DNA of 64,000 bases, from NCBI GenBank assembly GCA_965250045.1, contig OZ252286.1, positions 2,870,317-2,934,316 on the forward strand, read 5' to 3'. How positions within the stretch are numbered: the first letter of the stretch is position 1; every line of letters begins with the position of its first letter. This document shows positions 1,193-35,421 of this stretch, in pieces. This DNA is from Candidatus Marinacidobacterium sp. GTDB taxonomy: Bacteria; Acidobacteriota; Vicinamibacteria; Marinacidobacterales; Marinacidobacteraceae. A program made the translations under genes and the position numbers. The notes beneath the pieces are model-generated. The model was not told where the DNA came from and did not search any database. It saw nothing but the letters and a program-made list of their open reading frames with translations.

Positions 1193-1279
1193 GGCGGGCC
1201 GAGGATATCCACGGAAGGGATAATGGGGAACGCAGTGGCGGGTCCGACTACAACCCGCCCAGCACGCGGAGGATCCGGT

Positions 1280-16619: not shown

Positions 16620-17042
16620 TTAGAGCCGAATCTTGGCCGGGAAGTGGTTCAGCCCGAGGCGCGTCGCCGTGCGGTCCGTCTGGTCCACGATCGCGGCGGC
16701 GTTGATGCCGATCGCGATGACGATGGCTTCGCTGATCTCTTCCTTGGTGGCCCCGAGTTTGAGGGCCTTCTTCACATGACCGTCGAGGCATCCCTCGCAC
16801 TTGGCGATGAGCGAGCAGGCGAGGGCGATCAGCTCCTGGATCTTCGGATCCAGATGCTTGTTCTCCGAAAAATAGGTCTCTTTGTAGAACTGACCGTAGA
16901 TGGCCTTCATCCGCGGCTCGAGCATCGAATACGACGTCGGGGCCGAGCCATCCTGCTTTTGGTCCTTTTCCTGATCGCGCTGCCCCGGCTCGTGGTCGAT
17001 GCCGGGAATCCGCGCCTCGGGGGCCGCTACGTTGTCCGCCAT
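16620..17042 (-). CDS. Carboxymuconolactone decarboxylase family protein (AhpD-like, CxxC)
   Basis: 'ALACSLIAKCEGCLDGHVKKALKLGATKEEI' CMD/AhpD core. Start trimmed to the Met with an upstream GAGG. Confidence 0.65.
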   Translation of the reverse strand: MADNVAAPEARIPGIDHEPGQRDQEKDQKQDGSAPTSYSMLEPRMKAIYGQFYKETYFSENKHLDPKIQELIALACSLIAKCEGCLDGHVKKALKLGATKEEISEAIVIAIGINAAAIVDQTDRTATRLGLNHFPAKIRL

Positions 17043-17196
17043 GCCGAATGTTGCCTCGTGCCCGCCGCTTTTGGCCGGGACTTCGTCTCGGGGGACGGCG
17101 GGTGGGACGGCCACTTGTCTGGCGCCGCCCGCTCAGCGCGTCGAAAAGGGAGTAACCGGTGAAGGTTAGCATCAGGGAAACGATGCAGACCTTCCG

Positions 17197-19380: not shown

Positions 19381-19822
19381 GATTTCTTGAGCGCGAAGCC
19401 ATCAGCGGCTCGGCGGCCGTTCGGTCCGTTGTCCTTCCCGAATACGATCTGCCGAGCCACCCGGGGCGGCGGCTTGAACACGGGCTCCCAGTCCCGCACT
19501 TCGAGCTGTTCGATCCGCCCGTAATTCACCTCCTGCATCAGCTCGACGAGGCGTCGCCTGGCAGGAGTCAGGGCCGCCTTGGTCACATCCGTCATTTCCG
19601 GACCTCCTTTCGCGCTTTGGCGCATCAACGAAATCGCCCCCTCGGAGGCAGGTCCGACGAGGGTTCCTTCCAGGGAGCGTTGCCCGGACTTACCGGACGG
19701 AGCCGTCGGGGGAAGAGCTCTCGTCGGAGAGCTATGGTCGAAAGTGGGTGACGGCGAGAGAAGGGGGTGGCGTATCGTGGGAGTAACCAACCTTCCACAT
19801 CTCCAAAGAGGAGTGATACGCC

Positions 19823-20862
19823 ATGACGGAGAGTACCGTTGTTTTCCTTCCCTCAGCAGAGGGAGTTGAGGACCCGCTGACGGAGGTTCTGCGAGCGGGG
19901 GCCCGTCAGTTGGTGAGGCACGCCGTGGAAGCGGAGGTGGCGGCGCTGCTGGCGGCCTACGCCGATCATCGGACCGAGACGGGCCGTCGGCGACTGGTGC
20001 GTCACGGGCATGGCCCGGAGCGGGAGATCCTGACGGGGATCGGGCCGGTTCCGGTGCGGCGGCCGAAAGTACGGGACCGCGGAGGCGGGGGGGAGGATCG
20101 GATTCGGTTTTCCTCGACGATCCTGCCGCGTTTCGCGCGCCGGACGCGCTCGTTGGACGCGGCGCTGCCGACGCTGTATCTGCTGGGAGTGTCGAGCGGG
20201 GACTTCGGGGAGGCGCTGTCGGAGCTTGTGGGTCCGGGGGCCTCGGGGCTGTCGCCTGGTGTGATCGGTCGTTTGAAGGCGGAGTGGGAGGCTGAGCACC
20301 AGCGCTGGCGTGCGCGGGATCTCTCGGATCGGCGGCATGTGTATGTCTGGGCGGACGGGATCTACCTTCAGGGGCGTCTGGAGGACGAGAAGCAGTGCGT
20401 TCTGGTGCTGATCGGGGCAACGCCGGAGGGCCGGAAGGAGCTGTTGGGGTTCCAGACGGGGTTCCGGGAGAGCACCCAGAGCTGGCGGGAGCTGCTGGAG
20501 GACCTGAAGGGGCGCGGCCTCTCGATCCCCCCGGAGTTGGCGATTGGCGACGGGGCTCTCGGGTTCTGGAAGGCGCTGGATGAGGTCTTCCCGAAGACCC
20601 GCCGCCAGCGCTGCTGGGTTCACAAGACGGCGAACGTGTTGAACGTGTTGCCCAAGTCCCGGCAGCGGAATGCAAAGCAGGATCTGCATCAGATCTGGAT
20701 GGCGGCGAGCCGCGCCGAGGCGGAGCAGGCGATGGACACCTTCGAGGCCAAATACCACGCGAAGTATGCGAAGGCGGTCCCCTGCCTGACCAAGGACCGG
20801 GAGGCGTTGCTTGCGTTCTACGACTTTCCGGCCGAGCACTGGCAGCACATCCGGACCACGAA
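19823..20862 (+). pseudogene. IS256-family transposase of copy 2, interrupted (N-terminal 346 codons; C-terminal remnant 22635-22857)
   Basis: Collinear with the copy 1 transposase until the nested IS insertion point. Confidence 0.75.
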
Positions 20863-22625
20863 GGACTGTCAGAAATTCCGTGTGTAGGCCGGCGATTTTG
20901 GAAACTGGGCTTGGTTTGCTTCCCGGCATTGTATGACCGGGCCGATGGGGATCTGGCCGGCGCGCCCGAGGGGGCCAGCCGGGGGCGGGTAGGGACGCCG
21001 GGGGTTTTTGGAGTTCAAGGAGAGGGGCGGCGCCCGAGGCTCTCCACGGGCCAAACCTCTCCAGCAAACTCCAAGCTCCAAGGAGAGCCTGTGGGAAGGG
21101 TGGGAAACGCGTCCCGCTCCCCGAATCGTCCGGCAGCAAGGCGCGATGCGGTTCCAGCGTTTTCCAAGTCCTGGGGGAATCGCTCCGGACGAAGCGGTCC
21201 CTCGCGATCCGGTCGCCACGGGCGCCGCGATTTCCCCGGGACGGCGCTTTCCACGGGCTCAAGGCGGCGCTTTCGCGAACCCGCCGGGGGCCGTGAGGCG
21301 GACCGGCCGCCGCGCCCCGGGGGGCGGCACGCGGCGGGCTCACACGACCTCCACCGGGAATCGGTCCCCGAACAGGATGGCGAACTCGGCCCGCGCCTGG
21401 AACCAGTAGATCTGCGGCCGCTGCCACTTCCGCTCGATCTTCCGCAGCGTCAGGTAGATCAGCTTCGCCGCCGCCCGGTCGTTCGGAAAGTGGCCCCGCG
21501 TCCGTACCGCCCGCCGCACCGTGCTGTTCAGGCTCTCGATGGCGTTCGTCGTGTAGATCACCCGCCGGATCGGCGCCGAAAACGCGAAGTACGGGATCAC
21601 CTGCGTCCAGTTCCGCCGCCAACTCCGCACGATCGCCGGGAACTTCCGGCCCCAGGCACCCGCCTCGAACGCGTCCAGCGCCTCCTCCGCCTCCTCCAGC
21701 GTGTCCGCCCGGTAGATCGGACGCAGCGCCGACGCCAGCTCCTTGCGCTCCTTCCAGGACGCGTGCGCCAGCGAATACCGGATCAGGTGCACCACGCAGG
21801 TCTGCACCGTCGCCTCCGGAAACGCCGCCTCGATCGCCTCCGGAAACCCCTTCAGCCCGTCCACCACCACGATCAACACATCCCGAACGCCCCGCGCCTT
21901 CAGCTCGTTCATCACCCCCAGCCAGAACTTCGCCCCCTCGTTCGCCGCCGTCCACATCCCCAGGATCTCCTTCCGCCCCAGCGCCGTCACCCCGATCGCC
22001 AGGTGCACCGCCTTGTTCTGAACCAAACCCTCCTCCCGGATCTTCACCCGCAACGCGTCGAAATACACGATCGGATACACCGCCTCCAACGGCCGCGAAC
22101 GCCACTCCCGCAGCTCCTCGTGAACCTCGTCCGTCACCTTCGAGATCAACTCCCGAGACACCGTAACCCCATACAACTCCTCCACATGCGCCCGGATCTC
22201 CCGCGTCGTCATCCCCCGCGCATACAGCGAAATCACCTTCTCGTCGAACCCCGGTAGACGACGAACCCACTTCTCGATCAACTGCGGCTCAAAACGTCCC
22301 CCTCGATCCCGCGGAACCGCCAACTCCACCGATCCCGCCCCCGTCAACACCCGCTTCCGGTTGTGCCCGTTCCGGTGGTTCCCTGACCCCACCTCCTCCT
22401 CCCGCGAAAGGTGCAACTCCATCTCCACCTCCAGCGCACGCTCCGCCAGCGACTTCTGAAGCGCCGCAAACAACTCCCCGCTCCGGAGCGCCTCCCGTGG
22501 ATCCTCTCCCCCCAGAAGCTCGTCCAAAAGCTCTCCGCCGATCCGACTCTGCCGTCGCGTCATCTCTCTTCTCCTTAGCTCGTCTAGGTTACGCCCCTCC
22601 TACACACGGAATTTCTGACAGGCTC
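20863..22625 (-). mobile_element. Second, unrelated IS256-family IS nested inside copy 2; 9-bp TSD GACCACGAA
   Basis: TIRs GGACTGTCAGAAATTCCGTGTGTAGG / CCTACACACGGAATTTCTGACAGGCTC. GACCACGAA is duplicated at 20854-20862 and 22626-22634. Confidence 0.75.
21340..22563 (-). CDS. IS256-family transposase (second family)
   Basis: 407 aa; classic IS256 transposase (…VYPIVYFDALRVKIREEG…VDGLKGFPEAIEAAFPEATVQTCVVHLIRYSL…). Confidence 0.85.
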   Translation of the reverse strand: MTRRQSRIGGELLDELLGGEDPREALRSGELFAALQKSLAERALEVEMELHLSREEEVGSGNHRNGHNRKRVLTGAGSVELAVPRDRGGRFEPQLIEKWVRRLPGFDEKVISLYARGMTTREIRAHVEELYGVTVSRELISKVTDEVHEELREWRSRPLEAVYPIVYFDALRVKIREEGLVQNKAVHLAIGVTALGRKEILGMWTAANEGAKFWLGVMNELKARGVRDVLIVVVDGLKGFPEAIEAAFPEATVQTCVVHLIRYSLAHASWKERKELASALRPIYRADTLEEAEEALDAFEAGAWGRKFPAIVRSWRRNWTQVIPYFAFSAPIRRVIYTTNAIESLNSTVRRAVRTRGHFPNDRAAAKLIYLTLRKIERKWQRPQIYWFQARAEFAILFGDRFPVEVV

Positions 22626-23924
22626 GACCACGAACCCCATCGAGAGCGTCTTCGCCACCGTCCGGCATCGCACTGTTCGCAGCAAGGGATGCCTCTCCCA
22701 CAAGACGGCGCTGGCGATGGTCTTCAAGCTGGTCATGGCCGCCAGCAAGACCTGGCGCCGGCTCAACGGCTACCAACATTTGCCCCGGCTCATCCAGGGC
22801 GTCAAATTTACCGACGGCATTCAAGCCGACGAAACCGAAACCCGCGCCGCCGCCTGATCATGCCGTCACCCACTTTCGACCATAGCTCCTCGTCGGAGCC
22901 TTCACCCCTCAATGGCGAAATTTCGTTAAGCGGCAGGAGGCGCCACGAACAGCGGAAGCGCCCCCGGCGTGCGGTCCATCCGCCTCGCCGTCTCCGGGGC
23001 GTTAACTCGTGTCATGAATGAAGGCTTCGGTGGCCCGAACTATCAAGTCGTTTCTCCGTAACCACTTGGGAATGCTCGACTTTCTCGGCTTCACTCCCCG
23101 ATTCAGCCAGGATGCGGCGCCTCTTGCGGTGCCGGAGGTAGCCTTGGGCCAGGATCGAGGCGATCTCCGCGACGACCTCGTCGAGGGCGTCGGGGATGGG
23201 TGGGTTGCTCGGCATCCGGTTCTCCTCCTCGCGGGCGCCGCGAAAGAGGAGGCGTCGTGGATGCCGGACGGGACGGAATGGTCGTCAGGAGCCGTTGGAG
23301 TCCGCTCGACACCGCGCGCGGGCGATGTCGCCGGCACCCACAACGGGCTCCGTTCTCACGGCCGCTGCCGCTGTCTGGTGATCAGCCGGCCCCCCGTGGC
23401 CCGGCTTCCGCTGGATACCTACCGGCGCCGGTTAGGAAATGTCGAAACGCGGGGGCCCTTGGCAAAACGGGCTGTTAAACAACGCGGAGCGAAAAATGGA
23501 GAATCGGAGAATTCGGAAACGAAATCGCGGGGTCCCCATGCGCAACCCCCCTGGTTGCACGCGGCACCCCGCGTGGATCTTCCTAACCGGAGAATCGAGG
23601 AGAATGTGGGAATGGGCGTAACTGCTTGGAACAACGGTAGATACGACGAAGCCCCGGAGGGGTCACCCTCCGGGGCTTCGCGTTAACTATCGAGGCACTT
23701 TAGTTCGTCCTCGAAAAAATGGCTCCCCTTGCGCAACTTTCCCTTGTTCCGATCCAGCAATTTCGAGGCGGAAGCGTTGTCAAGCCCATTTCCGCCCCGC
23801 TGGTCAAAAAAGGCCCATCTCCAACGTCGGGACCAGGATATCTGGGTCGTCGTTCACCCTGGTGCTGACGGCGGGCCGCCCGTAGGGACCGGCAGGGGTT
23901 CACCCACTGCTCGGGGTCAGCTCC

Positions 23925-26900
23925 TCAGAAGGGGATCGACATTCGCACCATCACCGCTAGATCAGTCGGACCCGTTCTGTTCTTCCGCCTCGTGGCTTCC
24001 ATTTCCAACCTCAATGGCAGCGCCAGCTGCGAGCGTGGAGGCAGGCTACAAGCGGTCCCCCAGGCCAGCTCCCGGCCCTGTCCGGCCCAGCGCAGCCGGC
24101 TATAGGGCGTCAGCAGACACGGTAAGCCCAGCGCCTTCAGGCCGCCGTAGGCCACCTCGCTTTCCATCCGCGACTGCGAACCCATTCCCGCGGCATCCAT
24201 TCCCACCGGGTGCGTGACCATATTAGCGTTGTTCCATAGCGTCGTTCGGCCGCCTCCATCCTGGCCCCGCGAGGAGTTCACCGACACCCGCAACCCGCGC
24301 TGCTTCTCCCCCGGGTCCCAGCTCACCTGCAAGCCCGCACCCCAGTCCCGGTAGTCACTCTCATGCACCACCAGCACCCGCCCGTACAGCGCCGCGTCCA
24401 GGCCACTGTGCGCGTCCAGATACCCCAGACGGAAACCGGTTTCCATCCCAGCGCCCCGATCCGCGTCGCCCCGGTCAAAACGCCCGCCCGCTTCCGCCGT
24501 CAGGCTCAGTGACCGACCCGCCGACAGCGCCGCGTCATGCACCCACTCCAGCATCAACCGGCCCCGCTGGGCTTCACCGCGCACCGCCGCGATGTCCGCC
24601 AACGCGTCGGTCCCCAGTTGCGTCGTGAAGGCATCCGCGCGCACACCCCACTCATTGCTGCCCCGCCCCCCGAGCACCGCCCGCACGCCCCCGGCGAACA
24701 TCCGAAACTCGGCGCCGAAGTCGTGCGTCCGGCCCGGCTCTTCCACCTCCACTTGACCCTGTCCCAAGCCGCCAATGCCCCACACGCTCAACCGCGCGCT
24801 CGGCTGCCAGTACACATACGGGTGAACCGTGTTCATCCGACTCTCCAGCAACCCCGCCACCCCATCGTCCGTGTACTCCAGGTCCCCCCAGCTGCGCATG
24901 AACGACAGCCCCGCCAGAACCCGATCGTTGGCATACAGGTCCAGACCTACATGCGCGGCTTCGAGACCGCCGCCATAGTCCATACCCAGCCGCGTCAAGT
25001 CGCCGTTGAAGCGCTGCAGATCACCCTGGGCCCACATTACCGGCACCCAACTCGTCTCGCCCTCGCTCTCTCCCAGGGACATCTCGAACGACGCTCCAGA
25101 AAGGTTGAGCGCTTGCCCCACCATGGCCGAGTACCCAGCCGATCCCGCGTCCCTGGTCCCAGCACCCGGGATGAGCTCTTGATCCCGCATCCCGGAGAAG
25201 TCCCCCGAGCCCGGTCCCAGCCGCGCGTCTCCAAACCCGGAACCAAAGTGTCGATCCTGACCGGAGACTCGCCCGCCAGGCGCCGCACCGTAGCCGGAAG
25301 ACATGGCCGAGCCGCTCTGGGCGGCGCGCGCGAGGTTCTCAAACGAACCCAGCACCACATTGCGCAGCCACGAGACGGGCGTGCCGGTCTCCCGATGCTC
25401 CGAGTTCCAATCCGATCCCGTTGCCGCGCTGGTCCGGGCTGCGCCGGCCTGGTCTGCGCCCCGCGCGTGCTCAACCAAGGAGCCTTCTGCTCCTCTGCCG
25501 CCGCTGCCCTCACTGCCTACCCGCTCCGATTCGCCCGCGCCCAGAGCCGCCGCGCGATTGGCGCGCCCCGGCTGCAATGTCGATACCGCCCCACCCGACG
25601 ACCCCAGACGACTCCACTGCCGATGCCGCTCAAAGCGACCCTCTATCGCCGTCTGCGCGCTCGCTCCCATCGAGCGTCCCATCACCGCCAACATCGCCTC
25701 CAGCGAGGACGTGAACTGCTCCGCCGTCCGCCGCTGTCTGAAGCTCACTCTTGTCTCCGAGAGCTCTCCGCCGCTCACCGCCTCCGGCAATACGCCCAGG
25801 CTCAGCACGATCCCCTCCCCGGGATCGCTCACTTCATCCGTCAGCACCTCCACGGAAATCGTCCCCTCACGCTCGCCTTCCTCGAACACCAACGTCGACG
25901 GCACTTCCTGAAAGTCCTCGGGCGTCGTCCCGCCTTCGAGCGCCACCACGAGCGGTATCTCCAGCCGCCGGTCCGCGGCCGGGGAAACTGTCACCTTGAT
26001 CTCTGCCACCTCGCCTTCCTGCACTTCATACGCTGCCTGCCCAAAGCTCACCACGAGCTCCACCAGCCCCTTGTCTTCGAGCGTCACTATCGCCACGGCC
26101 GGTTCCCCGGCCAGCACGATCTCCGGCAGCTCCCCAAAGCCCAGCTCCACCGTCTCGTCGTCCCCATCCCCATCATGGTTGGCTGCAATCGTGAAGGTCT
26201 GTTCCGTCGCGCCGGCCCCGAAGGTAAGCGTTCCCGTGCCCGCCTCGGCATCCCAATCCTTCAACCCCTCGACCTGGTAGTCGCCTACTTCCGTCGTCTC
26301 CGGCCGCGTCACCCGGACCGGAATCGCCAACTCTTCGTCACCCGCCTTGCTCAGCTTCACCGTCACCGTCACCGACTCCCCACCTTCGGTTGCCGTGTAG
26401 CTCTCCGCCGCATAGCTCACCACAATGCCTGTCGCAATGACGAACGGCGCCGCCGCCTCATTGCCGTTGCTGGCGGCGTCCTCAGCCACATCCTCGGCAA
26501 CCTCCACCACCACCGGCTGTCCCACCACCGTCGGCTCGATTGTGGCTCGATACTCACTCGATGACACCGCGGTGAAGTCCGCTACCGTCCCGTTGGTGAC
26601 CTGAATATCGCTCTGCTCGAAACCCGTGACCGCCTCGCTAAAGGTGATCGTTACCTCGAACGCACCCCCCACCGGTCCCGCGGCCGCGCTGGTGATCTCC
26701 ACCTTCGGTGGGGCCGCCGCCTCGCTCGTGATCGCCACCGTGGGGCCGGCGCGGTCCCTCGCCGCGGCCCGGTGGACCTTGATGGTGTAGGTCTGAGTGG
26801 GCGTCCCGTCCGCGGCAGTCACCTGCACCGGGATGGAGGTTGCAGCACCCAAGGCCAGGGCAATCGCGTCACTGGCGCTCCGGCTCGCCACCACGCTGCC

Positions 26901-29900
26901 GTTCACCGTCACCGTCGCGCCGACTTCAGCCGTCGTCGGCGTCACTTTCACACTGTCTGTAGAGGCCTCCACGGCGACGGCGTAGCTCGTGGTCGTCGCG
27001 GCGAAGTCCGGTGTCAGCGTCCCCGGCGAGACGGTCAGGTTCAACAGGTTCGCGTTGGAGCCGCTCTCAAGGATCGCCACGCTCACCGGTACGTCGATCG
27101 TGACGATCCCGTCCGTGACGGCGTAGCGAAACATATCGGTGCCGGTGAAGCCGGCCTTGGGCGTATAGGTGACGGTGGTCCCGTTGGTGTTGATCTCGGC
27201 GGTCCCGTTGCTCGGGCCCGTTCCGGGTAAGCCCACCTCGACCACGCGGAGGATCGTCCCCGCGTCCACGTCCGAGTCGTTTTCCAACACGCCAATGACG
27301 ATTGGAATGTCTTGGCTGGTCTCGGCGGTGTCAGCCTTCGCCTCCGGCGGGTCGTTCACGGCATTCACGTTAATGGTGATGGTGTATGACGCCGCGCTGT
27401 CGAGCTCGCCGTCATTGACCTTGAAGTCGAACGTCGCGAAAGCGGCGCCGTTGGCATTGGCTGGCGGGGTGTACCTGAACTCGTCGGTGGCGGAGAACGT
27501 CACTTGCGGAGCCGTGTTGAGGTCGGTAATGTCCGTGCCATTGAACGACAGCGTCCCCCGGTCCGTCCCGGGCAGCGCGGTGATCTTCACATGGTCCAAC
27601 GTGGCGCCGTCGACGTCCGAGAAGCCAAAGTCCGCCTCACCAAACGTGTACGTCGTGTCCTCGTCCATGGACACCGTCTTGTCGGAACCCGTGAGGGAGT
27701 CGTCCACGGCATTCACGTTAATGGTGATGGTGTATGCCAACTCGCTGTCGGCCGCGCCGTCATTGACCTTGAAGTCGAACGTCGCGAAAGCGGCGCCGTT
27801 GGCATTGGCTGACGGGGTGTATGTGAGATTGCCGGCATCGAGCCCGGTCTTTGCCACCTGCCTGGGCGTCCTGACATCGGTAATGGGCGTGCCGCCAACC
27901 GACAGCGTTCCCCGGTTCTGCTCGGGCAGTGCAGTGATCTTCAAGCGGTTCAGCGTGGCGCCGGATTTGACGCTCGTGAAGCCGAAGTCCGCCACCTTAA
28001 AGGTGTACGTCGTGTCCTCGTCCGTGGACACTGTGTTGTGGGAAGCCGTGGGGGCGTCGTTCACCGGCGTGGCGGTCGTGGTGGATGCAGGGCCGCGACC
28101 GGAAGCGTTCTCGGCACGCACCGCAAACGTGTACTGGGTGCCGTTGGTCAGTCCGATCACGGTGGTGGTGGTAGTGCTCGCACCGCTGTCGCTGATGTCG
28201 GCGAAGGTCGTGCCACCGTCCTTGCTGACCTGGTACTTGGTGATCGTGTTGTTGCCCGGATCGTCCCAGGACAGAGTGACTTGGCCGTTACTCGGCGTGG
28301 CCGTGAGGTTCGTCGGGGGGGCCGGCGAGACCACCATCGGCGTGGCATCCACGGCGGCTGGCCAACTGCTGTCCGCGGAGTCCTGTGTCGCCAGCACCGT
28401 GAAGGTGTATTCGGTGCCGTTGTTCAACGAGTCAATGGCAGCGATCGTCTTCGACCCCGAACCGGCTGGCACGTCCACCGAATTGCCGTCCGAGATGTCT
28501 ACCCGATAATCGGTGATCCCGGGGTTCCTGTCCCACTCCAGGAAGACCCGGCTGCTGTCCGGCGTCGCCACCAAATTGGTCGGCGCGGGCCACAGTGGCG
28601 TGGCAGTCGCGGTGGATGCCGCGCCGTAACCCCACCAGTTCACCCCGCGCACCGCCAGCGTGTACTGGGTGCCGTTGGTCAGACCGGTCACGGTGGTGGT
28701 GGTAGTGCTCTTGCTGCTGCCGCTGATGTCGGTGAAGGTCGTGCCACCGTCCATGCTGATCTGGTACTTGTAGATCGTGTCGTTGTCCGGATCGCTCCAG
28801 GACAGAGTGGTCTGGCGGTCGTCACCCTCGGTGGCCGTAAGGTTCTCCGGGGCCGGCATGGATATCGGTCTGGCCGTCACGGTGGGTGATTCCTTACCGT
28901 TCAGCGCCCGCACACTGAAGGCGTACAGGGTGCCGTTGGTCAGTGGATAAACGGTGCGAGTCGTCGTCGAACCCGATCCGGGAGGAAGGAATATGGTGTT
29001 ACGCCGGACACCGTCTTCATAGACATAGATATAATAATCGTCGATGTCGTCGTGGCCGTTGTTCCACTCCACGGTAACCCGACCCTGGCCCGCCGTCGCC
29101 ACCAAACCGGTCGGCGCGGGCCACAGTGGCGTGGCGGTCACGGTGGATTCCGCGCCGTTACCGCCAGCGTTCACCGCCCGCACCGCAAACGTGTACTGGG
29201 TGCCGTTGGTCAGACCGGTCACGGTGTAGCTGGTCGTGGTGTCATCGCTGCCGCTGATGACGCTGAAGGAGCCACCGTCGGTGCTGTACTCGTACTCGTC
29301 GATTGTGCTGTCGCCCGGATCGTCCCAGGTAAGACCGATCTGTCTGTCACCCACCTCGGCCTCGAGATTCGTCGGGGCGGTCGGGGCCAGTGCCGGCGTG
29401 GCGGTCACGGTGGATTCCGCGCCGTTACCGCCAGCGTTCACCGCCCGCACCGCAAACGTGTACTGGGTGCCGTTGGTCAGGCCGGTCACGGTGTAGCTGG
29501 TCGTGGTGTCACCGCTGTTGGGGATGTCGGCCCAGCTGCTGTAGGTCCCCGTGTCGGTTTTCCGGCGATACTGGTATTTCGTGATGGTGTTGTTGGCCGG
29601 ATTGGCCCAGGACAGAGTGACCTGGCCGTCATCCGGCGTGGCCGAGAGGTTCATTGGGGCGGCCGGGGCGCGAATTTGCCCATTGACCCTGATTTGTAAC
29701 ACACTGAAATTAATCGAACTCCACCCGGTTGAGCCCGGGGTGCGCGCGTGGCGTTCATTCCTGATGCTCCACCCGATGGCCGAAGCGGAATCTTGGAGGT
29801 TAGATGTCGTATTGTCCCATTGGGGGTAACTAGCACTGCCGTTAGGCGCGAAAACCATTTGCACGAAGTATTGGGTGTTTGCACTCAGACTGGCACCGGC

Positions 29901-30290
29901 AGGGGCGGTGAACGTTCGGAGTCCCGCCGCCACGTTGGCCGGGTTGTTCAAGGTATATAATGTATTGCCCCCCGGATCGCCCGATCCGTCGTCACCCCTC
30001 ACCGTTACCGTCAGGGTTCCGCTACCCGAAGCCACGCCTACGCCCAATTCGATACTTGTCAAGGAGTAGCCCAGTGTATTCTGGCCCGTGGTGAACCCCT
30101 GAGCATGGTCACTGGGATTTACGGGTGTCTGACCGGCGTTAGATTGGCCCGTATTGCTCACGAGCACGGTCTGGGCGTGCGCTGGCGCCGGAAAGCCAAG
30201 CATCAGCATCGCGGCGGCGAGGAATAAGCCGATGATTCTCAGCCGCGGGTCTTTCCTCCGCATCACGCCCTGAATATCCGAGCGGTCCAA
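23925..30290 (-). CDS. Giant (2121 aa) autotransporter-like surface adhesin: signal peptide, multiple FN3, cadherin-like/Ig-like and Calx-beta domains, C-terminal outer-membrane beta-barrel
   Basis: N-terminal signal RIIGLFLAAAMLMLGFPAPAHA; repeated FN3 units (...TKYQY...TSYTVTGLTNGTQYTFAVRAVNAGGNG...); VNDAPTA/VNDPPEA cadherin-like units; Calx-beta-like blocks. The C-terminal ~600 aa is Gly/aromatic-rich with alternating pattern and ends ...VRMSIPF (terminal Phe). Near-identical intragenic DNA repeats. Confidence 0.7.
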   Translation of the reverse strand: MDRSDIQGVMRRKDPRLRIIGLFLAAAMLMLGFPAPAHAQTVLVSNTGQSNAGQTPVNPSDHAQGFTTGQNTLGYSLTSIELGVGVASGSGTLTVTVRGDDGSGDPGGNTLYTLNNPANVAAGLRTFTAPAGASLSANTQYFVQMVFAPNGSASYPQWDNTTSNLQDSASAIGWSIRNERHARTPGSTGWSSINFSVLQIRVNGQIRAPAAPMNLSATPDDGQVTLSWANPANNTITKYQYRRKTDTGTYSSWADIPNSGDTTTSYTVTGLTNGTQYTFAVRAVNAGGNGAESTVTATPALAPTAPTNLEAEVGDRQIGLTWDDPGDSTIDEYEYSTDGGSFSVISGSDDTTTSYTVTGLTNGTQYTFAVRAVNAGGNGAESTVTATPLWPAPTGLVATAGQGRVTVEWNNGHDDIDDYYIYVYEDGVRRNTIFLPPGSGSTTTRTVYPLTNGTLYAFSVRALNGKESPTVTARPISMPAPENLTATEGDDRQTTLSWSDPDNDTIYKYQISMDGGTTFTDISGSSKSTTTTTVTGLTNGTQYTLAVRGVNWWGYGAASTATATPLWPAPTNLVATPDSSRVFLEWDRNPGITDYRVDISDGNSVDVPAGSGSKTIAAIDSLNNGTEYTFTVLATQDSADSSWPAAVDATPMVVSPAPPTNLTATPSNGQVTLSWDDPGNNTITKYQVSKDGGTTFADISDSGASTTTTTVIGLTNGTQYTFAVRAENASGRGPASTTTATPVNDAPTASHNTVSTDEDTTYTFKVADFGFTSVKSGATLNRLKITALPEQNRGTLSVGGTPITDVRTPRQVAKTGLDAGNLTYTPSANANGAAFATFDFKVNDGAADSELAYTITINVNAVDDSLTGSDKTVSMDEDTTYTFGEADFGFSDVDGATLDHVKITALPGTDRGTLSFNGTDITDLNTAPQVTFSATDEFRYTPPANANGAAFATFDFKVNDGELDSAASYTITINVNAVNDPPEAKADTAETSQDIPIVIGVLENDSDVDAGTILRVVEVGLPGTGPSNGTAEINTNGTTVTYTPKAGFTGTDMFRYAVTDGIVTIDVPVSVAILESGSNANLLNLTVSPGTLTPDFAATTTSYAVAVEASTDSVKVTPTTAEVGATVTVNGSVVASRSASDAIALALGAATSIPVQVTAADGTPTQTYTIKVHRAAARDRAGPTVAITSEAAAPPKVEITSAAAGPVGGAFEVTITFSEAVTGFEQSDIQVTNGTVADFTAVSSSEYRATIEPTVVGQPVVVEVAEDVAEDAASNGNEAAAPFVIATGIVVSYAAESYTATEGGESVTVTVKLSKAGDEELAIPVRVTRPETTEVGDYQVEGLKDWDAEAGTGTLTFGAGATEQTFTIAANHDGDGDDETVELGFGELPEIVLAGEPAVAIVTLEDKGLVELVVSFGQAAYEVQEGEVAEIKVTVSPAADRRLEIPLVVALEGGTTPEDFQEVPSTLVFEEGEREGTISVEVLTDEVSDPGEGIVLSLGVLPEAVSGGELSETRVSFRQRRTAEQFTSSLEAMLAVMGRSMGASAQTAIEGRFERHRQWSRLGSSGGAVSTLQPGRANRAAALGAGESERVGSEGSGGRGAEGSLVEHARGADQAGAARTSAATGSDWNSEHRETGTPVSWLRNVVLGSFENLARAAQSGSAMSSGYGAAPGGRVSGQDRHFGSGFGDARLGPGSGDFSGMRDQELIPGAGTRDAGSAGYSAMVGQALNLSGASFEMSLGESEGETSWVPVMWAQGDLQRFNGDLTRLGMDYGGGLEAAHVGLDLYANDRVLAGLSFMRSWGDLEYTDDGVAGLLESRMNTVHPYVYWQPSARLSVWGIGGLGQGQVEVEEPGRTHDFGAEFRMFAGGVRAVLGGRGSNEWGVRADAFTTQLGTDALADIAAVRGEAQRGRLMLEWVHDAALSAGRSLSLTAEAGGRFDRGDADRGAGMETGFRLGYLDAHSGLDAALYGRVLVVHESDYRDWGAGLQVSWDPGEKQRGLRVSVNSSRGQDGGGRTTLWNNANMVTHPVGMDAAGMGSQSRMESEVAYGGLKALGLPCLLTPYSRLRWAGQGRELAWGTACSLPPRSQLALPLRLEMEATRRKNRTGPTDLAVMVRMSIPF

Positions 30291-30722
30291 TGCGTGACGA
30301 CCCCTACAATGAGCCGTCCGGTCAGGACTTTTCTTCGCAGGTTTGGCGCGTCAACAAAGTTGGGGACCCTCCTTGTTCTGTTTCAGCCATTGTACAGCGT
30401 TGTTGCATGGATCATCCCGAAGGATGCCTTATCATCGTGTTTTTCAACACAGGGGATAACCTTGGATGCCACATAAGTTCAACGTAGCGCGACGGCACAA
30501 GTTTGCTAAGGCGCAGTACCGGGTGTCAAGGGCGGACCAAAACTAGACCAGAGTGGCGGAGGGGAATTCGCTACCACCAACTCCACGAAGCGAAGCTCTT
30601 GCGCCTGATCGTCCTTCAGGATGCCCAAGAACCGCTCGAGCTGTCTGGCGTACGTAATCTGGCTCTCGTTCTCGTACTCGCAGGTCTTGCCGAAATATCG
30701 GGAGGCGAGGCGGTTGGCGATC

Positions 30723-32110
30723 GAGCTATGGTCGAAAGTGGGTGACGTCGGGAGAAAGGGGTGGCGTATCGTGGGAGTAACCAACCTTCCACATCTCCAA
30801 GGAGGAGTGATACGCCATGACGGAGAGTACCGTTGTTTTCCTTCCCTCAGCAGAGGGAGTTGAGGATCCGCTGACGGAGGTTCTGCGAGCGGGAGCCCGC
30901 GAGCTGGTGAGGCACGCGGTGGAGGCGGAGGTGGCGGCGCTGCTGGTGGCGTATGAGGATCACCGGACCGGAGGCGGCCGTCGGCGCGTGGTGCGTCACG
31001 GGCATGGCCCGGAGCGGGCGATCCTGACGGGGATCGGTCCGGTACCGGTGCGTCGGCCGAAGGTTCGGGACCGGGGTGGCGCGGGAGAGGATCGTGTCCG
31101 GTTCTCTTCGCGGATCCTGCCGCGATTCGCGCGGCGGACGCGCTCGCTGGACGCGGCGCTGCCGACGCTGTATCTGCTGGGAGTATCGAGCGGGGACTTT
31201 GGGGAAGCGCTGTCGGACCTGTTGGGTTGTGGGGCCTCGGGGCTGTCGCCGGGCGTGATCGGCCGTTTGAAGGCGGAGTGGGAGTCGGAACACGAGCGCT
31301 GGCGTCTGCGGGATCTGTCGGACCGGCGGTATGTCTACGTGTGGGCGGACGGGATCTACCTTCAGGGCCGGCTGGAAGACGAAAAGCAGTGCGTTCTGGT
31401 GCTGATCGGGGCGACGCCGGAGGGCAAAAAGGAACTGCTGGGGTTCCAGACGGGGTTCCGGGAGAGCGCCCAGAGTTGGCGGGAACTGCTGGAGGATCTC
31501 AAGGGGCGTGGCCTCCAGATCCCCCCGGAGCTGGCGATCGGGGACGGAGCTCTCGGCTTCTGGAAGGCGCTGGACGAGGTCTTCCCCAAGACCCGCCGCC
31601 AGCGCTGCTGGGTCCACAAGACCGCGAACATACTGAACGCGTTGCCCAAGTCCCGGCACCGGAACGCCAAGCAGGACCTGCATCAGATCTGGATGGCGGA
31701 GGGGCGCGCCGAGGCGGAGCAGGCGATGGACACCTTCGAGGCCAAATACCAGGCCAAGTATGGGAAGGCGGTCACCTGCCTGACCAAGGACCGCGACGCC
31801 CTGCTGGCCTTCTACGACTTCCCGGCCGAGCATTGGCAGCACATCCGGACCACCAACCCCATCGAGAGCGTCTTCGCTACCGTCCGGCATCGGACCGTTC
31901 GTAGCAAGGGATGCCTCTCTCACAAGACCGCACTGGCGATGGTCTTCAAACTGGTCATCGCTGCCAGCAAGACCTGGCGCCGCCTCAACGGCTACGAGCA
32001 GTTGCCCCGGCTCATCCAGGGCGTCAAATTTACCGACGGCATTCAAGCCGACGAAACCGAAACCCGCGCCGCCACCTGATCATGTCGTCACCCACTTTCG
32101 ACCATAGCTC
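30723..32110 (+). mobile_element. IS256-family IS, copy 3 (near-identical to copy 1)
   Basis: Same TIRs; transposase differs from copy 1 at only ~2 residues. Confidence 0.85.
30817..32079 (+). CDS. IS256-family transposase (copy 3)
   Basis: 420 aa, ~99.5% identical to 18087-19349. Confidence 0.85.
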   Translation: MTESTVVFLPSAEGVEDPLTEVLRAGARELVRHAVEAEVAALLVAYEDHRTGGGRRRVVRHGHGPERAILTGIGPVPVRRPKVRDRGGAGEDRVRFSSRILPRFARRTRSLDAALPTLYLLGVSSGDFGEALSDLLGCGASGLSPGVIGRLKAEWESEHERWRLRDLSDRRYVYVWADGIYLQGRLEDEKQCVLVLIGATPEGKKELLGFQTGFRESAQSWRELLEDLKGRGLQIPPELAIGDGALGFWKALDEVFPKTRRQRCWVHKTANILNALPKSRHRNAKQDLHQIWMAEGRAEAEQAMDTFEAKYQAKYGKAVTCLTKDRDALLAFYDFPAEHWQHIRTTNPIESVFATVRHRTVRSKGCLSHKTALAMVFKLVIAASKTWRRLNGYEQLPRLIQGVKFTDGIQADETETRAAT

Positions 32111-32379: not shown

Positions 32380-33282
32380 CTAACCCTCCTCCCGAAACGC
32401 CGTCACGTCGCGATGGAAGACGAAAAGCGAATCCATGTTCCCCGACGGCGATTCGAAGTTGTAGGTTCGCCCGCGGAGCACTTTCACCCCCAGGTTGTTG
32501 TTCAGATAGTCCAGCTCGAAGCGCTCCACCTGTGCGAACGGCAATTGGAACGCATCCTTGTGATCCGTCTGGTAGTCGAACCCCTCGGGCGTCGCAACCA
32601 GCGTCCCTTCGCAGGACCCGAACCGATGTTTGTGTACCGCGGCCACCTTGACGTCCAGTGACGCCACCATGTCGCCGAAGTCCACTCGCACCGGCACCGC
32701 TTTCCTTTCGACCGCCACCCGACGGGAAACGACCTCGTACCCCTCGATGGACACCGTCAGGTTGTACTCCCCGGGCTGAAGATCCGCGATCGTGACCGGG
32801 GTGTTTCCCTTGAAGTTTCGGTCCACAAAGACGTTCGCTCCGGCGATGTCACTCTCCACGACGATGGACCCGAGCATTTCAGTGAGGTTCGCCGCCAGCG
32901 AGCGGATCCGGCCTCCGCGGATGGTGATGGTTGTCTCCAGGGAGTGATATCCCTCTTTTTCCACCCGAACCGGGTACTCGCCGACGCCCAATTCCTCCCA
33001 GGCCCCCGGAACCGTGCCAAGCAAACGGCCGTCCAGGAGAACACTGGCGCCCTCGGTGCCCTCTATCTGCAGGGTGCCGGTGGTGGGCGGCGCCGGGGGT
33101 GGAGGCGGTGGCGCTCTCTCTGCTTCGGGCGCCTTGGGCGGCGGCGCCTCTTCGGCCGGTGCGGTTTCTTCCGCTGGGGCCGCAGACTCCTCGCCTCCAC
33201 CACATCCTGCGAGGGAAGCGAGGCTGGCCAGGAGAGCGAGTGATCGAAAGAAGATGCGCGTCGACTCAGAGCGACGAATCAT
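32380..33282 (-). CDS. PEGA-domain lipoprotein
   Basis: Signal/lipobox LALLASLASLAGCGG; Pro/Ala-rich linker; PEGA-like repeats (LQIEGTEGASVLLDGRLLGTVPG..., ANVFVDRNFKGNTPVTIADLQPGEYNLTV). Confidence 0.6.
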   Translation of the reverse strand: MIRRSESTRIFFRSLALLASLASLAGCGGGEESAAPAEETAPAEEAPPPKAPEAERAPPPPPPAPPTTGTLQIEGTEGASVLLDGRLLGTVPGAWEELGVGEYPVRVEKEGYHSLETTITIRGGRIRSLAANLTEMLGSIVVESDIAGANVFVDRNFKGNTPVTIADLQPGEYNLTVSIEGYEVVSRRVAVERKAVPVRVDFGDMVASLDVKVAAVHKHRFGSCEGTLVATPEGFDYQTDHKDAFQLPFAQVERFELDYLNNNLGVKVLRGRTYNFESPSGNMDSLFVFHRDVTAFREEG

Positions 33283-33784
33283 CCGCAGAGCCTCCCACCT
33301 CACGGTAACCCCGGTCGTAGTAGAGAAGCGGTGCGGCGTCCTCCCGCTCTACCCTGCCCCCGGTCACCCGGCCGATGAACAGCGTGTGATCGCCCTCCGG
33401 GTGGGCGCCGACAGTGCTGCACTCGAGCCAACCGATACAGCCGGAGAGCTGCGGCGGATTCCCAGCCCCGCCGGCTCCCACCGCGGCGGCAAAAGACTCG
33501 CCGAACTGATCGGCCGAGTCGGACCCCGGCTTCGCGAAATGCCCCGAAACGTCAGCCTGATCAGCAGCGAGAAGGTGCACCCGAAACCCCCCGGCGGCGA
33601 TCGCAGAGTGCGCCCGGGCGGAGTTCACGATGGAGACGAGCACCAACGGCGGTTCGAGACTCACCGGAATGAACGAACTGACGGTGATCCCTCTCGGCCC
33701 CCCCGGACCGCTCGCGGTCACAACGGTCACAAGTTGCGGAGCGCGACGCATCAGCGCACGGATCGCCGAGGCCGCGTCGCTCAT
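33266..33784 (-). CDS. Flavin reductase-like (FMN-binding split-barrel) protein
   Basis: 'LVTVVTASGPGGPRGITVSSFIPVSLEPPLVLVSI' flavin reductase domain signature. ATGA overlap with the OsmC stop. Confidence 0.7.
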   Translation of the reverse strand: MSDAASAIRALMRRAPQLVTVVTASGPGGPRGITVSSFIPVSLEPPLVLVSIVNSARAHSAIAAGGFRVHLLAADQADVSGHFAKPGSDSADQFGESFAAAVGAGGAGNPPQLSGCIGWLECSTVGAHPEGDHTLFIGRVTGGRVEREDAAPLLYYDRGYREVGGSADDSSL

Positions 33785-34266
33785 CCAGCTACGCCTGCGT
33801 CGTCCAGTTCCTCGAAATCGGCTGTATAGCTGACGTCCACGGCACCCTTCAGGGTGTTCGCGAGAGGGCAGCCGCGCTCATGGAAACGCAGCGCCCGTTC
33901 CGCTTCTTCGCGTTTGCCGGCTGGCAACGCCACGCGGTACCGAATCCGGATGGCGCGCAGGGCCATGACGCCGCCCTCGTCCACGATGTCGCCTTCGATT
34001 TCTGCCGAGAGCCGGTCCGGCTGACTCGGGATGCCGCGTACTTCGAGCGCCCGCCCGAACGTCCCCACCATTCAACCACCGGTGGCGGCCACCACGTAGT
34101 CAAGGGTCGCCGGCAACTCTTCTGCCGGAGTTACCCCATAGAAGGCGGCGATTCCGCTGTGGACGCCGAAACGGACCGGCTGGTCGAAGTCCTCCAGGAA
34201 GGCCTGCCGGACCGGGCCGGCCTGCTTGACTATCCGGGCGTGGCAGGTATGGACGACTTTGCTCAT
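33781..34266 (-). CDS. OsmC/Ohr-family peroxiredoxin with in-frame TGA 34072-34074 at the peroxidatic Cys position; predicted selenoprotein
   Basis: ORFs 34072-34368 and 33781-34071 are contiguous in the same frame: ...PAEELPATLDYVVAATGG-[TGA]-MVGTFGRALEVRG... The second conserved OsmC Cys is present (ERGCPLANTL). Start taken at MSKVV (34266), overlapping the upstream gene stop. Confidence 0.55.
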
Positions 34267-34808
34267 CGCGACTCTACGAAGATCTCGGAATGGAGCATCT
34301 TCACCGGGGCCCCGGGCTTCGCCGTCGGCAGGGACAGTTCCAGGGTGGTGTTCGTAGGAGCACTGCAAGCGTTGTCCGTGCAGAGCTGGTAGCGGACCAG
34401 CACTTCAGCGTCCGCCGAACGTCCACTCTTGAGGATGGAAGTAACGGGAATGCGGATCGCCACCGTCCCCTCATAGAGATCGTATTCGCCAAGACCGGAA
34501 AGGTCCCGCCGGATCGGGTCGGGATAGAACGGGTGTCCGCTTTCGAAAGCTCCACCCTCGACCAGTTCCACGACCGTGGCGGTGGGGAATGCCTCCTCGG
34601 GTCCGTAGAGGTGATACCCCTCTTCAAGTTCGGCGACCACTGCGACTTCGAAGCTGTCGCCGGGACGCACCGGGGACTGGGAGGCCACCAATTCGAATTT
34701 CGCCGCGTTCTCCCAGTCGGGAATCATCGGCGGTTGGGCGGCGAGGGTGGCAGCAAGACCGCCGGACACGGTCAGGGCGAGACCGGACAGCAGGAGAGGG
34801 TGTTTCAT
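34263..34808 (-). CDS. Periplasmic DsbD N-terminal-domain-like thiol-disulfide relay protein
   Basis: Signal peptide MKHPLLLSGLALTVSGGLAATLAAQ; nDsbD-like beta-sandwich with the 'YQLCTDNAC' Cys pair. Confidence 0.5.
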   Translation of the reverse strand: MKHPLLLSGLALTVSGGLAATLAAQPPMIPDWENAAKFELVASQSPVRPGDSFEVAVVAELEEGYHLYGPEEAFPTATVVELVEGGAFESGHPFYPDPIRRDLSGLGEYDLYEGTVAIRIPVTSILKSGRSADAEVLVRYQLCTDNACSAPTNTTLELSLPTAKPGAPVKMLHSEIFVESR

Positions 34809-34839: not shown

Positions 34840-35421
34840 TCAGGATCCGGCGAGACGGGAGATCTCGGACAGGATCTCCTTGGGGGAGGTTCGGTCGCGG
34901 TAGTTCACCCACACGTTGACGAACCGAACTACGCCGTCACCATCCACGATGATGGTTGCCGGATGGGGAATTCCTTCCCGTTCCGTGCCGTTGTGGTCCG
35001 GATTGGGGATTCCATATTCGCTGATGACCGGACCTCCGTCCACCATGATGGGGAACGTCCAGGCATTCTTCGAGAGCCACATCAGGGTGTCTCCCACCCC
35101 GTATTTGGAAATGCCGAGCACCGTGGCGCTCTGCGCCTCGAACTGATCCAGGGACTCTTGCAACTCGCCGAGTTGCGCAATGCAGAATGGTCACCAACCG
35201 CCACTGCGGAAGAACTCAAGAACGACCGGCCCTCGCTTCACGAGTTCGGAAAGTCGGTAGGAGGCGCCGTGGGCGTCCTTGAGTTCGAAATCGGGCGCCC
35301 GATCCCCGACCTTCACCGTCGGGATGTCGGTGTCCTGTGCGGATCCGCTGGAAGGGGCGAGGCCCGTGGCCAAGCCGACGACCAGCAATGCAGAGACGGG
35401 AAGTCGAGACATGCGGGCCAT
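34840..35421 (-). CDS. Secreted thioredoxin-fold peroxiredoxin-like (AhpC/TSA-redoxin) protein with in-frame TGA 35191-35193 in the CxxC motif (W-U-P-F-C); predicted selenoprotein
   Basis: ORFs 35191-35421 and 34840-35163 share a frame; read through the TGA gives ...GDRAPDFELKDAHGASYRLSELVKRGPVVLEFFRSGGW-U-PFCIAQLGELQ...PATIIVDGDGVVRF... N-terminal signal peptide. A perfect 7-bp stem hairpin lies 14 nt downstream of the UGA. Confidence 0.6.
35160..35176 (-). promoter_or_regulatory. Candidate bacterial SECIS hairpin downstream of UGA 35191-35193
   Basis: mRNA GCAACUC-GGC-GAGUUGC: perfect 7-bp stem, G-containing apical loop, beginning 14 nt 3' of the UGA. Confidence 0.4.

Follow-up and report, generated by a model that had tools for sequence, protein, structure and literature searches.

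A Probable Exported Prx-Like Selenoprotein Encoded Near a Second In-Frame TGA Gene in Candidatus Marinacidobacterium (Acidobacteriota)

Introduction

Peroxiredoxin-like (Prx-like) proteins of the PF00578 domain with selenocysteine (Sec, U) in a UxxC motif are an established selenoprotein family (PMC1088965, PMC2398784, PMC9312934, PMC13188914), which was first described in 2004–2005 and has been known for about twenty years; annotation pipelines routinely cut its genes in two. The 2005 survey of the Sargasso Sea already contained 22 such sequences, with the thioredoxin-like UxxC motif as opposed to the TxxU motif of the Sec-peroxiredoxins (PMC1088965), and in the Global Ocean Sampling survey the family “Prx-like 1” (pfam00578, UxxC) ranked eighth in abundance, with 225 selenoproteins and 2,740 cysteine (Cys) homologs (PMC2398784). 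OsmC-like selenoproteins (PF02566) are likewise a known family (PMC13188914, PMC2398784, PMC1088965), and the selenoprotein operons described include frhA-frhD-hdrA, Prx/SelW, Prx-like/AhpD-like, SAO, and Tso (PMC13188914). Here, a stretch of 64,000 nucleotides from Candidatus Marinacidobacterium sp. (contig OZ252286.1), termed the window below, is analyzed, in which the minus-strand region 35421-34840 is very probably one intact gene for a Sec-decoded, exported Prx-like thiol:disulfide oxidoreductase, as judged from its sequence and that of its orthologs.

Selenoproteins are known in Acidobacteria, with three families and four proteins listed in a 2006 survey (PMC1794560, Table 2), and a literature search on selenoproteins in sponge-associated Acidobacteria found nothing. 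In addition, Acidobacteria possess unusual “allo-tRNAs” that resemble tRNASec and whose function is uncertain, and selC* tRNAs decode UGA as Cys in some other phyla (PMC5389517). Termination at UGA is a known by-product of Sec decoding (PMC4513850).

One Reading Frame Across an In-Frame TGA

The open reading frames (ORFs) 35191-35421 (76 aa) and 34840-35163 (107 aa) share a frame, and translation bears out the observation of a preliminary description of this DNA that the TGA at 35193-35191 is the only stop between them. Read through, the translation runs MARMSRLPVSALLVVGLATGLAPSSGSAQDTDIPTVKVGDRAPDFELKDAHGASYRLSELVKRGPVVLEFFRSGGW, then the TGA, then PFCIAQLGELQ...; the region around the stop reads ...VVLEFFRSGGW-[TGA]-PFCIAQLGEL..., and the tryptic peptide across it is SGGW-X-PFCIAQLGELQESLDQFEAQSATVLGISK, where X is the TGA position. 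When the stop is translated as Cys, the 193-aa product has a match to the Pfam AhpC-TSA domain at E=2.2e-27 over residues 38-167, covering profile positions 1-123 of 124, and the AhpC/TSA (PF00578) score of 95.9 bits compares with a curated cut-off of 26 bits, the domain crossing the in-frame UGA; the read-through product also matches Redoxin (2.2e-13). Taken alone, neither ORF encodes a full thioredoxin fold, and both are required for the Pfam domain.

In the window, TGA is the commonest stop codon and ends 34 of the 50 predicted genes, including the Prx-like gene itself. A scan of the window for TGA codons with at least 40 open, coding-like codons on either side returned 10 sites, eight of which represent neighboring genes in a common frame or antisense frames, and the only two TGAs inside one continuous protein domain in the 64 kb are those at 35193-35191 and 34074-34072.

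The N-terminus of the product has a basic segment (MARMSR), a hydrophobic core (LPVSALLVVGLATGL), and a site with small residues at G-S-A/Q, as judged by eye. An N-terminus of this type, with a basic start, a hydrophobic core, and a c-region of small residues, is kept in the orthologs whose N-terminal part is intact, and the product is predicted to be exported by way of an N-terminal signal peptide.

Conservation of the TGA and Its Flanks

Orthologs were gathered from 31 loci, 27 of them in reference genomes at the species level and four on contigs from metagenomes. All hosts are Acidobacteriota labeled Vicinamibacteria, “Candidatus Marinacidobacterium,” or Marinacidobacterales, and several bear isolate names of sponge metagenome-assembled genomes (MAGs). 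Immediately after the conserved Trp, a TGA stands in 30 of the 31 loci and in 26 of the 27 species-level genomes, while identity to the window protein ranges from 47 to 100% in the N-terminal part and from 54 to 96% in the C-terminal part (47–58 and 54%, respectively, in the most distant loci). The Prx-like gene is free of any further stop or frameshift in 25 of the 27 genomes, and genomes of the clade that keep both in-frame TGAs include OZ244986.1, OY821641.1, and OZ220713.1; the locus also lies on the complete or near-complete chromosomes OY729431.1, OZ242011.1, OZ251549.1, and CAXXLQ010000004.1. The exception to the conserved TGA is locus L030 (CAUZCL010000002.1; 2800-4600), where the Prx-like motif is lost and internal stops are present; in locus L031 (2700-3300), the TGA and the hairpin described below are kept and the gene carries frameshifts to either side of that codon.

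When 5.8 billion proteins were searched, every close relative (68–94% identity) proved to be a fragment split at the same column; these fragments form 17 C-terminal clusters (106–107 aa, the C-terminal 55% of the query) and nine N-terminal clusters, and all seven N-terminal fragments retrieved end in ...VVLEFFRSGGW; full-length relatives occur only at 41% identity or less.

Substitutions relative to the window at codon positions 1/2/3 number 114/83/387 in the part before the TGA, 4/13/32 across the nine-codon stretch from the TGA to the first possible restart, and 430/324/1103 in the downstream stretch. Third positions are in excess in all three stretches, all of which are therefore taken to be translated as protein in one frame. 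The nine codons after the TGA, PFC[I/K][A/K]QLGE, differ among loci by synonymous changes (CCA/CCG/CCT/CCC, TTC/TTT, and TGC/TGT) and include the invariant second Cys, and the only nearby start candidate, the TTG at 35163, is replaced by CTG in six loci. The Prx-like TGA is thus conserved, with both of its flanks under purifying selection.

The Active Site

Among 39 full-length homologs aligned to the read-through protein, all 31 of the WCPFC type have Cys in the TGA column, in agreement with the earlier placement of the stop at the first Cys of CxxC, and all eight peroxiredoxins of the BCP/PrxQ type have Thr; Cys80 is invariant in 39 of 39. The closest solved structures are Mycobacterium tuberculosis AhpE (Rv2238c, E=2.8e-10) and archaeal BCPs, with ResA, CcmG, and DsbE lower (E from 1e-5 to 1e-3). 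Aligned to AhpE (FFRSGGW-C-PF-C vs. FFPL-AF-T-GI-C), the Sec column corresponds to the Thr of the peroxiredoxin TxxC and Cys80 to the peroxidatic Cys of peroxiredoxins (the Cys of FTGIC in AhpE), whereas the catalytic Arg of AhpE (GIANRGTF) falls on the His of GIPHPATI. The Arg column holds R in the BCP homologs and H or other residues in the window's clade and its Cys relatives.

The T/S-x-x-Cp motif of canonical peroxiredoxins is therefore missing from the Prx-like protein, its Thr column being Sec (Cys in the homologs), as is the conserved catalytic Arg, and assignment to the canonical AhpC, BCP, PrxQ, or AhpE types was rejected on these grounds. The earlier label of a “canonical AhpC/TSA-redoxin” domain is too strong, since the predicted Sec stands at the Thr of TxxC and His at the Arg. 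From this arrangement of Sec, Cys80, and His, the product is best described, at the level of sequence, as a thioredoxin-style U/CxxC oxidoreductase on a peroxiredoxin scaffold.

The Candidate SECIS Hairpin

The preliminary description had also placed a 7-bp stem-loop at 35160-35176, beginning 14 nt after the TGA, and proposed a check against a model of the bacterial selenocysteine insertion sequence (bSECIS). The stem-loop, GCAACUC-GGC-GAGUUGC, is present as described and is conserved in 29 of 29 sequences, with a UGA-to-loop spacing of 21 nt and a folding energy of −7.7 kcal/mol in the window and of −7.7 or −10.1 kcal/mol across orthologs. The bSECIS constraints are a loop of 3–9 nt with G at its first two positions, an upper stem of 4–16 bp, a UGA-to-loop spacing of 16–37 nt, and a minimum free energy of −7.5 kcal/mol or lower (PMC13188914); all 29 Prx-like orthologs lie within all four, with the loop GGC or GGU, and C-GGN-G agrees with the N1-G[G|U]N-N2 pattern as well.

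Pairing in the stem is 100% across the 29 sequences (24 of them distinct), against 14–57% in sliding controls, and an unconstrained RNAalifold run gives this hairpin as the only consensus structure. Six of the pairs are invariant, and the fourth is A:U in 16, G:C in six, and G:U in two of the sequences, with no A-C mismatch, i.e., one compensatory change from A:U to G:C with G:U intermediates. This variable pair is built from synonymous sites (Gln CAA/CAG and Leu TTG/CTG); most species keep CAA and TTG together, although the two are rare here, making up 16% of the Gln and 10% of the Leu codons. Similarly, Leu45 is encoded by CTC and Glu47 by GAG in 28 of 28 sequences, while other invariant Leu columns use three or four codons, and mean codon entropy at invariant residues with at least four-fold degeneracy is 0.39 in the hairpin vs. 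1.07 gene-wide (p=0.0028). As a background, 9.6% of 17,108 codons of predicted genes are followed by any hairpin within the bSECIS constraints, and the share is 1.0% for such hairpins whose Watson-Crick stem has 7 bp or more.

Weighing the Selenocysteine Reading

Selenocysteine at codon 77 is well supported because the domain crosses the TGA, because the TGA, its flanks, and the hairpin are conserved, because the column is otherwise Cys, because TGA elsewhere serves as a stop, and because a second gene nearby carries a TGA of the same kind. Several results nonetheless weigh against this reading. None of selA, selB, selD, or the gene for tRNA-Sec lies in the 64-kb window or the 31 fetched loci; ARAGORN finds no tRNA-Sec, and no tRNA at all, in the same sequences, and Pfam annotation of the approximately 50 predicted genes of the window yields no SelA, SelB, or SelD. 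The 63 nt after the TGA, in sequence of 66% GC, fold no better than shuffled versions (z=0.01), the stem-loop is a short one whose −7.7 kcal/mol lies barely under the −7.5 threshold, and covariation is confined to one of its seven pairs. Part of the nucleotide conservation of the hairpin is forced by the invariant peptide AQLGELQ, and random synonymous encoding of AQLGEL keeps the 7-bp stem 5.5% of the time. Rfam gives chance matches only, both for the window at gathering thresholds and for 35050-35300 at E<=10, a result that is uninformative either way because Rfam holds no bSECIS family. Curated NCBIfam selenoprotein models also score low, at 40.0 vs. 120 bits for NF040769 (SelL-related) and 22.8 vs. 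270 bits for NF040737 (PrxU), and the cut-offs of other models are not reached either (41.8 vs. 170 bits for ResA and 40.3 vs. 140 bits for thiol peroxidase); with scores this far under the cut-offs, annotation pipelines split the gene. Thermodynamic significance was dropped as a criterion in view of the z-score at this GC content, and conservation, covariation, and the codon-level background were used instead. The hairpin by itself is weak evidence, and the case therefore rests on the comparative evidence and on conservation.

Among the other explanations, a recent nonsense mutation or a sequencing or assembly error (a miscalled TGC or TGT) in a former Cys redoxin gene would account for gene callers splitting the gene everywhere, and the gene is truly disrupted by more frameshifts or stops in L030 and L031. 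The same TGA nevertheless recurs in 30 of 31 independently assembled loci and in 26 species-level genomes, substitutions on both sides are of the coding type with third positions dominant, 25 of 27 genomes have no other lesion in the gene, and the identity retained in the N-terminal (47–100%) and C-terminal (54–96%) parts is incompatible with neutral decay, which makes a pseudogene or an error extremely improbable, as the preliminary description had argued in preferring Sec. Public annotations call the region as two genes, and TTG can be a start codon, which would allow a 76-aa exported peptide and a 107-aa C-terminal protein started independently at TTG 35163; given that the nine codons between the TGA and this TTG are conserved as protein with their invariant second Cys, that the TTG is CTG in six loci, and that the complete fold and Pfam domain need both halves, this arrangement is very unlikely. 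Some termination at the UGA of this gene may still take place as a side product.

A further alternative is recoding of the UGA to Cys or another residue by a SECIS/SelB-type or suppressor mechanism, for example with a selC* tRNACys or an acidobacterial allo-tRNA acting as an opal suppressor, or by near-cognate read-through by tRNATrp; the residue inserted cannot be read from sequence alone. Opal-decoding, tRNASec-like tRNACys species have been described, and allo-tRNAs occur specifically in Acidobacteria (PMC5389517), but selC* is reported from anaerobic Firmicutes, Thermodesulfobacteria, Nitrospirae, and Proteobacteria rather than Acidobacteria, and no function has been proven for the allo-tRNAs of the latter. 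Moreover, plain Cys could simply be encoded by TGC, and both TGAs of this locus stand exactly at the catalytic Cys of redox families already known to include selenoproteins, the classical signature of Sec; non-Sec recoding is accordingly judged unlikely. Genome-wide reassignment of UGA to an ordinary sense codon for Trp or Gly, as in Mycoplasma and Gracilibacteria, has the two in-frame TGAs in its favor and nothing beyond them, and it is excluded, with a probability that is practically nil, by the use of TGA as the stop of 34 of the 50 predicted window genes and by the restriction of in-domain TGAs to two in 64 kb.

Proposed Mechanism

If codon 77 is decoded as Sec, the UGA would be bypassed as a stop and the ribosome would go on to the real stop, a TGA 116 codons later, with the conserved hairpin acting as a bacterial SECIS that recruits SelB-GTP-Sec-tRNASec for the insertion of Sec. 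The 193-aa precursor would then be exported through its N-terminal signal peptide. At the N-terminal position of U-P-F-C, Sec77 would be the nucleophile that attacks the oxidized substrate (a disulfide, sulfenate, or hydroperoxide) and would subsequently pair with Cys80 as a selenenylsulfide, which a partner would reduce again. The most plausible candidate for this partner is the nDsbD-like protein, which is predicted to be co-transcribed and exported and has a conserved Cys pair. We infer the use of SelA, SelB, SelC, and SelD by the Prx-like gene together with the export, redox chemistry, and partner of its product.

The Gene Cluster and the Second TGA Gene

The coordinates of the Prx-like gene and its neighbors are collected in Table 1. 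The order parA-parB, Prx-like(U), DsbD_N, OsmC-like(U), flavin reductase, PEGA is kept in 27 of 27 genomes, and the putative operon thus adjoins parAB in all of the sampled marine and sponge-associated Vicinamibacteria genomes. The stop of the DsbD_N gene overlaps the start of the OsmC-like gene in ATGA, as does the stop of the OsmC-like gene with the start of the flavin reductase gene, which suggests translational coupling.

Table 1. Features of the Prx-like locus in the window (positions are those of the window)
Feature	Position	Strand	Remarks
Predicted Prx-like selenoprotein gene	35421..34840	minus	193 codons including Sec77; ATG 35421-35419; end stop TGA 34842-34840
In-frame TGA, predicted Sec codon (U77)	35193-35191	minus	Position 1 of U-P-F-C
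TGC codon of Cys80	35182..35184	minus	Second residue of UxxC
Predicted Sec-type (secretory) signal peptide	35338..35421	minus	Residues 1-28, MARMSRLPVSALLVVGLATGLAPSSGSA/QD; inferred from sequence features
Candidate bacterial SECIS core	35176-35160	minus	7-bp stem 35176-35170/35166-35160; GGC loop 35169-35167
Exported stand-alone DsbD N-terminal-like domain protein (predicted)	34263..34808	minus	181 aa; Pfam DsbD_N 1.3e-11
OsmC-like gene with in-frame TGA 34074-34072	33781..34266	minus	Pfam OsmC 3.3e-12 across the TGA
Candidate SECIS of the OsmC-like gene	34042..34059	minus	UUCGGGC-GGGC-GCUCGAA, 19 nt after the UGA
Flavin reductase gene, last conserved gene of the putative operon	33266..33784	minus	Pfam Flavin_Reduct 1.5e-40

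The DsbD_N-like protein has a signal-peptide-like N-terminus of its own and a YQ[LIV]CTDxACSAP cysteine pair in 31 of 31 loci. The N-terminal domains of DsbD and of ScsB pass electrons to periplasmic thioredoxin-fold proteins, and the targets of nDsbD and the ScsB N-domain include a periplasmic peroxiredoxin in Caulobacter. By analogy, the nDsbD-like neighbor is the most plausible reductant of the Prx-like selenoprotein.

The codon context of the OsmC-like gene is ...LDYVVAATGG-TGA-MVGTFGRAL..., and public assemblies call it as abutting ORFs of 64 and 94 aa. Its TGA aligns with the first, peroxidatic Cys of Thermus thermophilus OsmC (1UKK), the second Cys (GCP) is retained, and the TGA is found at this column in 31 of 31 loci, with the gene of L030 disrupted just downstream. 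The hairpins after this TGA lie within the bSECIS constraints in 16 of 17 orthologs; the window's clade has UUCGGGC-GGGC-GCUCGAA, and the hairpin of locus L019 shows a double change from U:A to C:G. In the distant clade, the hairpin has a different sequence (CGCGCGC-UGGAA-GUGCGCG). No single alifold consensus forms across the orthologs, and the consensus is weak. The occurrence of two independent, conserved TGAs at catalytic sites in one cluster is strong indirect evidence, from sequence comparison, that the clade decodes Sec.

Both TGA genes of L030 are degraded together, the OsmC-like gene being truncated, and the genes for DsbD_N and flavin reductase are retained. Either loss of the Sec trait in the lineage or a poor assembly could be the reason. 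Products of two kinds, two exported and two cytoplasmic, are predicted to be mixed in the four-gene cluster. It is possible, and proposed here only as a tentative reading, that the cluster is an undescribed, clade-specific operon with two selenoproteins, in which an exported UxxC Prx-like protein and a stand-alone, exported nDsbD-like carrier would be translationally coupled to a cytoplasmic Sec-OsmC peroxidase and flavin reductase, serving a selenium-dependent oxidative-stress defense in both compartments that would have been lost as a unit in at least one lineage (L030).

In a distant clade of Marinacidobacterales (L024, L026-L028, and L031), the interval between the DsbD_N-like and OsmC-like genes contains an extra ORF of about 170 codons (about 3830-4380) that includes ...LGYDIRR...MYFIYFD..., and the window's clade is without it.

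Other Features of the Window

Near the operon, a full-length CMD/AhpD-like gene of 164 aa (16620-17114, minus strand) has no in-frame stop. It is the Cys form of a frequent selenoprotein family and gives weak, sub-threshold matches to several models of AhpD-domain selenoproteins.

Relative to the syntenic loci L001-L004, positions 17993-32110 form an insertion of about 14 kb. Transposases of the IS256/Mutator family at 17993-19380 and 30723-32110, which are 100% identical over the 300 nt compared, flank a third copy (92%), a further transposase, the fourth, encoded on the opposite strand (21340-22563), and a surface protein of 2121 aa of the fn3/cadherin-like/Calx-beta type (23925-30290). The insertion looks like a composite transposon carrying an adhesin.

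On the plus strand, positions 1085-3472 encode a 795-aa protein in which ankyrin repeats are joined to a beta-propeller of the PQQ/BamB type, and two further PQQ_2 propeller proteins come after it. Such eukaryote-like repeat proteins are typical of sponge symbionts, which fits with the sponge-MAG relatives.

Significance

Every public record found splits the Prx-like gene into two “peroxiredoxin” fragments, as seen in the 17 C-terminal and nine N-terminal clusters and in the gene calls of four metagenome contigs. If the TGAs are decoded as Sec, counts of the selenoproteome in this abundant clade of marine and sponge-associated Acidobacteriota fall short by two or more genes in each genome. The locus would add Vicinamibacteria to the lineages with Sec in exported thiol oxidoreductases and would link Prx-like and OsmC-like selenoproteins in one operon with a candidate electron carrier, and its minimal candidate bSECIS, a 7-bp stem with a triloop inside an invariant peptide, would be a clean natural example of such an element. 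The understanding of Sec decoding and of Prx-like selenoproteins is unchanged by these results, which would not surprise a specialist; only the great compactness of the SECIS and the conserved pairing of two predicted selenoproteins in an operon are mildly new.

Comparison With Known Families

The candidate SECIS of the Prx-like gene agrees with the bSECISearch consensus model, whose prototype is the SECIS of Escherichia coli fdhF, in a loop that starts with GG, a 7-bp stem, a 21-nt spacing, and an energy of −7.5 kcal/mol or lower, and it differs from the fdhF element in being a very small triloop without a lower stem or a bulged U. The OsmC-like gene shares with the known OsmC-like selenoproteins (PF02566, “UxxT,” NF041052) a domain across a TGA at the peroxidatic Cys and the second Cys in GCP; its motif is U-M-V-G-T (UxxxT), in contrast, and it scores 26 bits against NF041052, where the cut-off of 95 bits is not reached, in keeping with a divergent subgroup.

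PrxU (TxxU; NF040737) has the same Pfam domain and overall fold as the Prx-like protein and is likewise a selenoprotein with a bSECIS, but its Sec occupies the position of the peroxidatic Cys, whereas the predicted Sec of the window protein is at the Thr position, with Cys80 at the peroxidatic position and the Arg replaced by His. The TlpA/ResA/CcmG (DsbE) proteins, which are reduced through DsbD/CcdA/ScsB pathways, are similar to the window protein in export, which is predicted for the latter, in their WCxxC-type site and thioredoxin/redoxin fold, in a weak but significant similarity, and in the neighboring DsbD-N-like gene; they differ in that the window protein scores far under the family cut-offs and would have Sec in place of Cys. 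The nDsbD-like domain of the window stands alone, lacking the membrane and C-terminal domains that DsbD has, and the arrangement of Prx-like, nDsbD, OsmC-like, and flavin reductase genes is not among the selenoprotein operons of PMC13188914.

The closest match is the Prx-like family itself (UxxC/UxxU; for example, WP_010940744.1 of Geobacter sulfurreducens), with which the window gene shares the PF00578 domain, a predicted Sec as the first residue of UxxC, a nearby downstream bSECIS candidate, plentiful Cys homologs, and occurrence in marine metagenomes (PMC1088965, PMC2398784, PMC9312934, PMC13188914). It differs in that its ortholog group is confined, as sampled, to Acidobacteriota of the Vicinamibacteria/“Ca. 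Marinacidobacterium,” and in having a predicted signal peptide and a conserved operon that also encodes an nDsbD-like protein and a predicted selenoprotein of the OsmC-like type. By the definition used in the literature (PF00578, UxxC at the Cys column, and a bSECIS), the predicted product is a member of the Prx-like family, an unannotated one of a long-known family in a lineage where it had not previously been pointed out.

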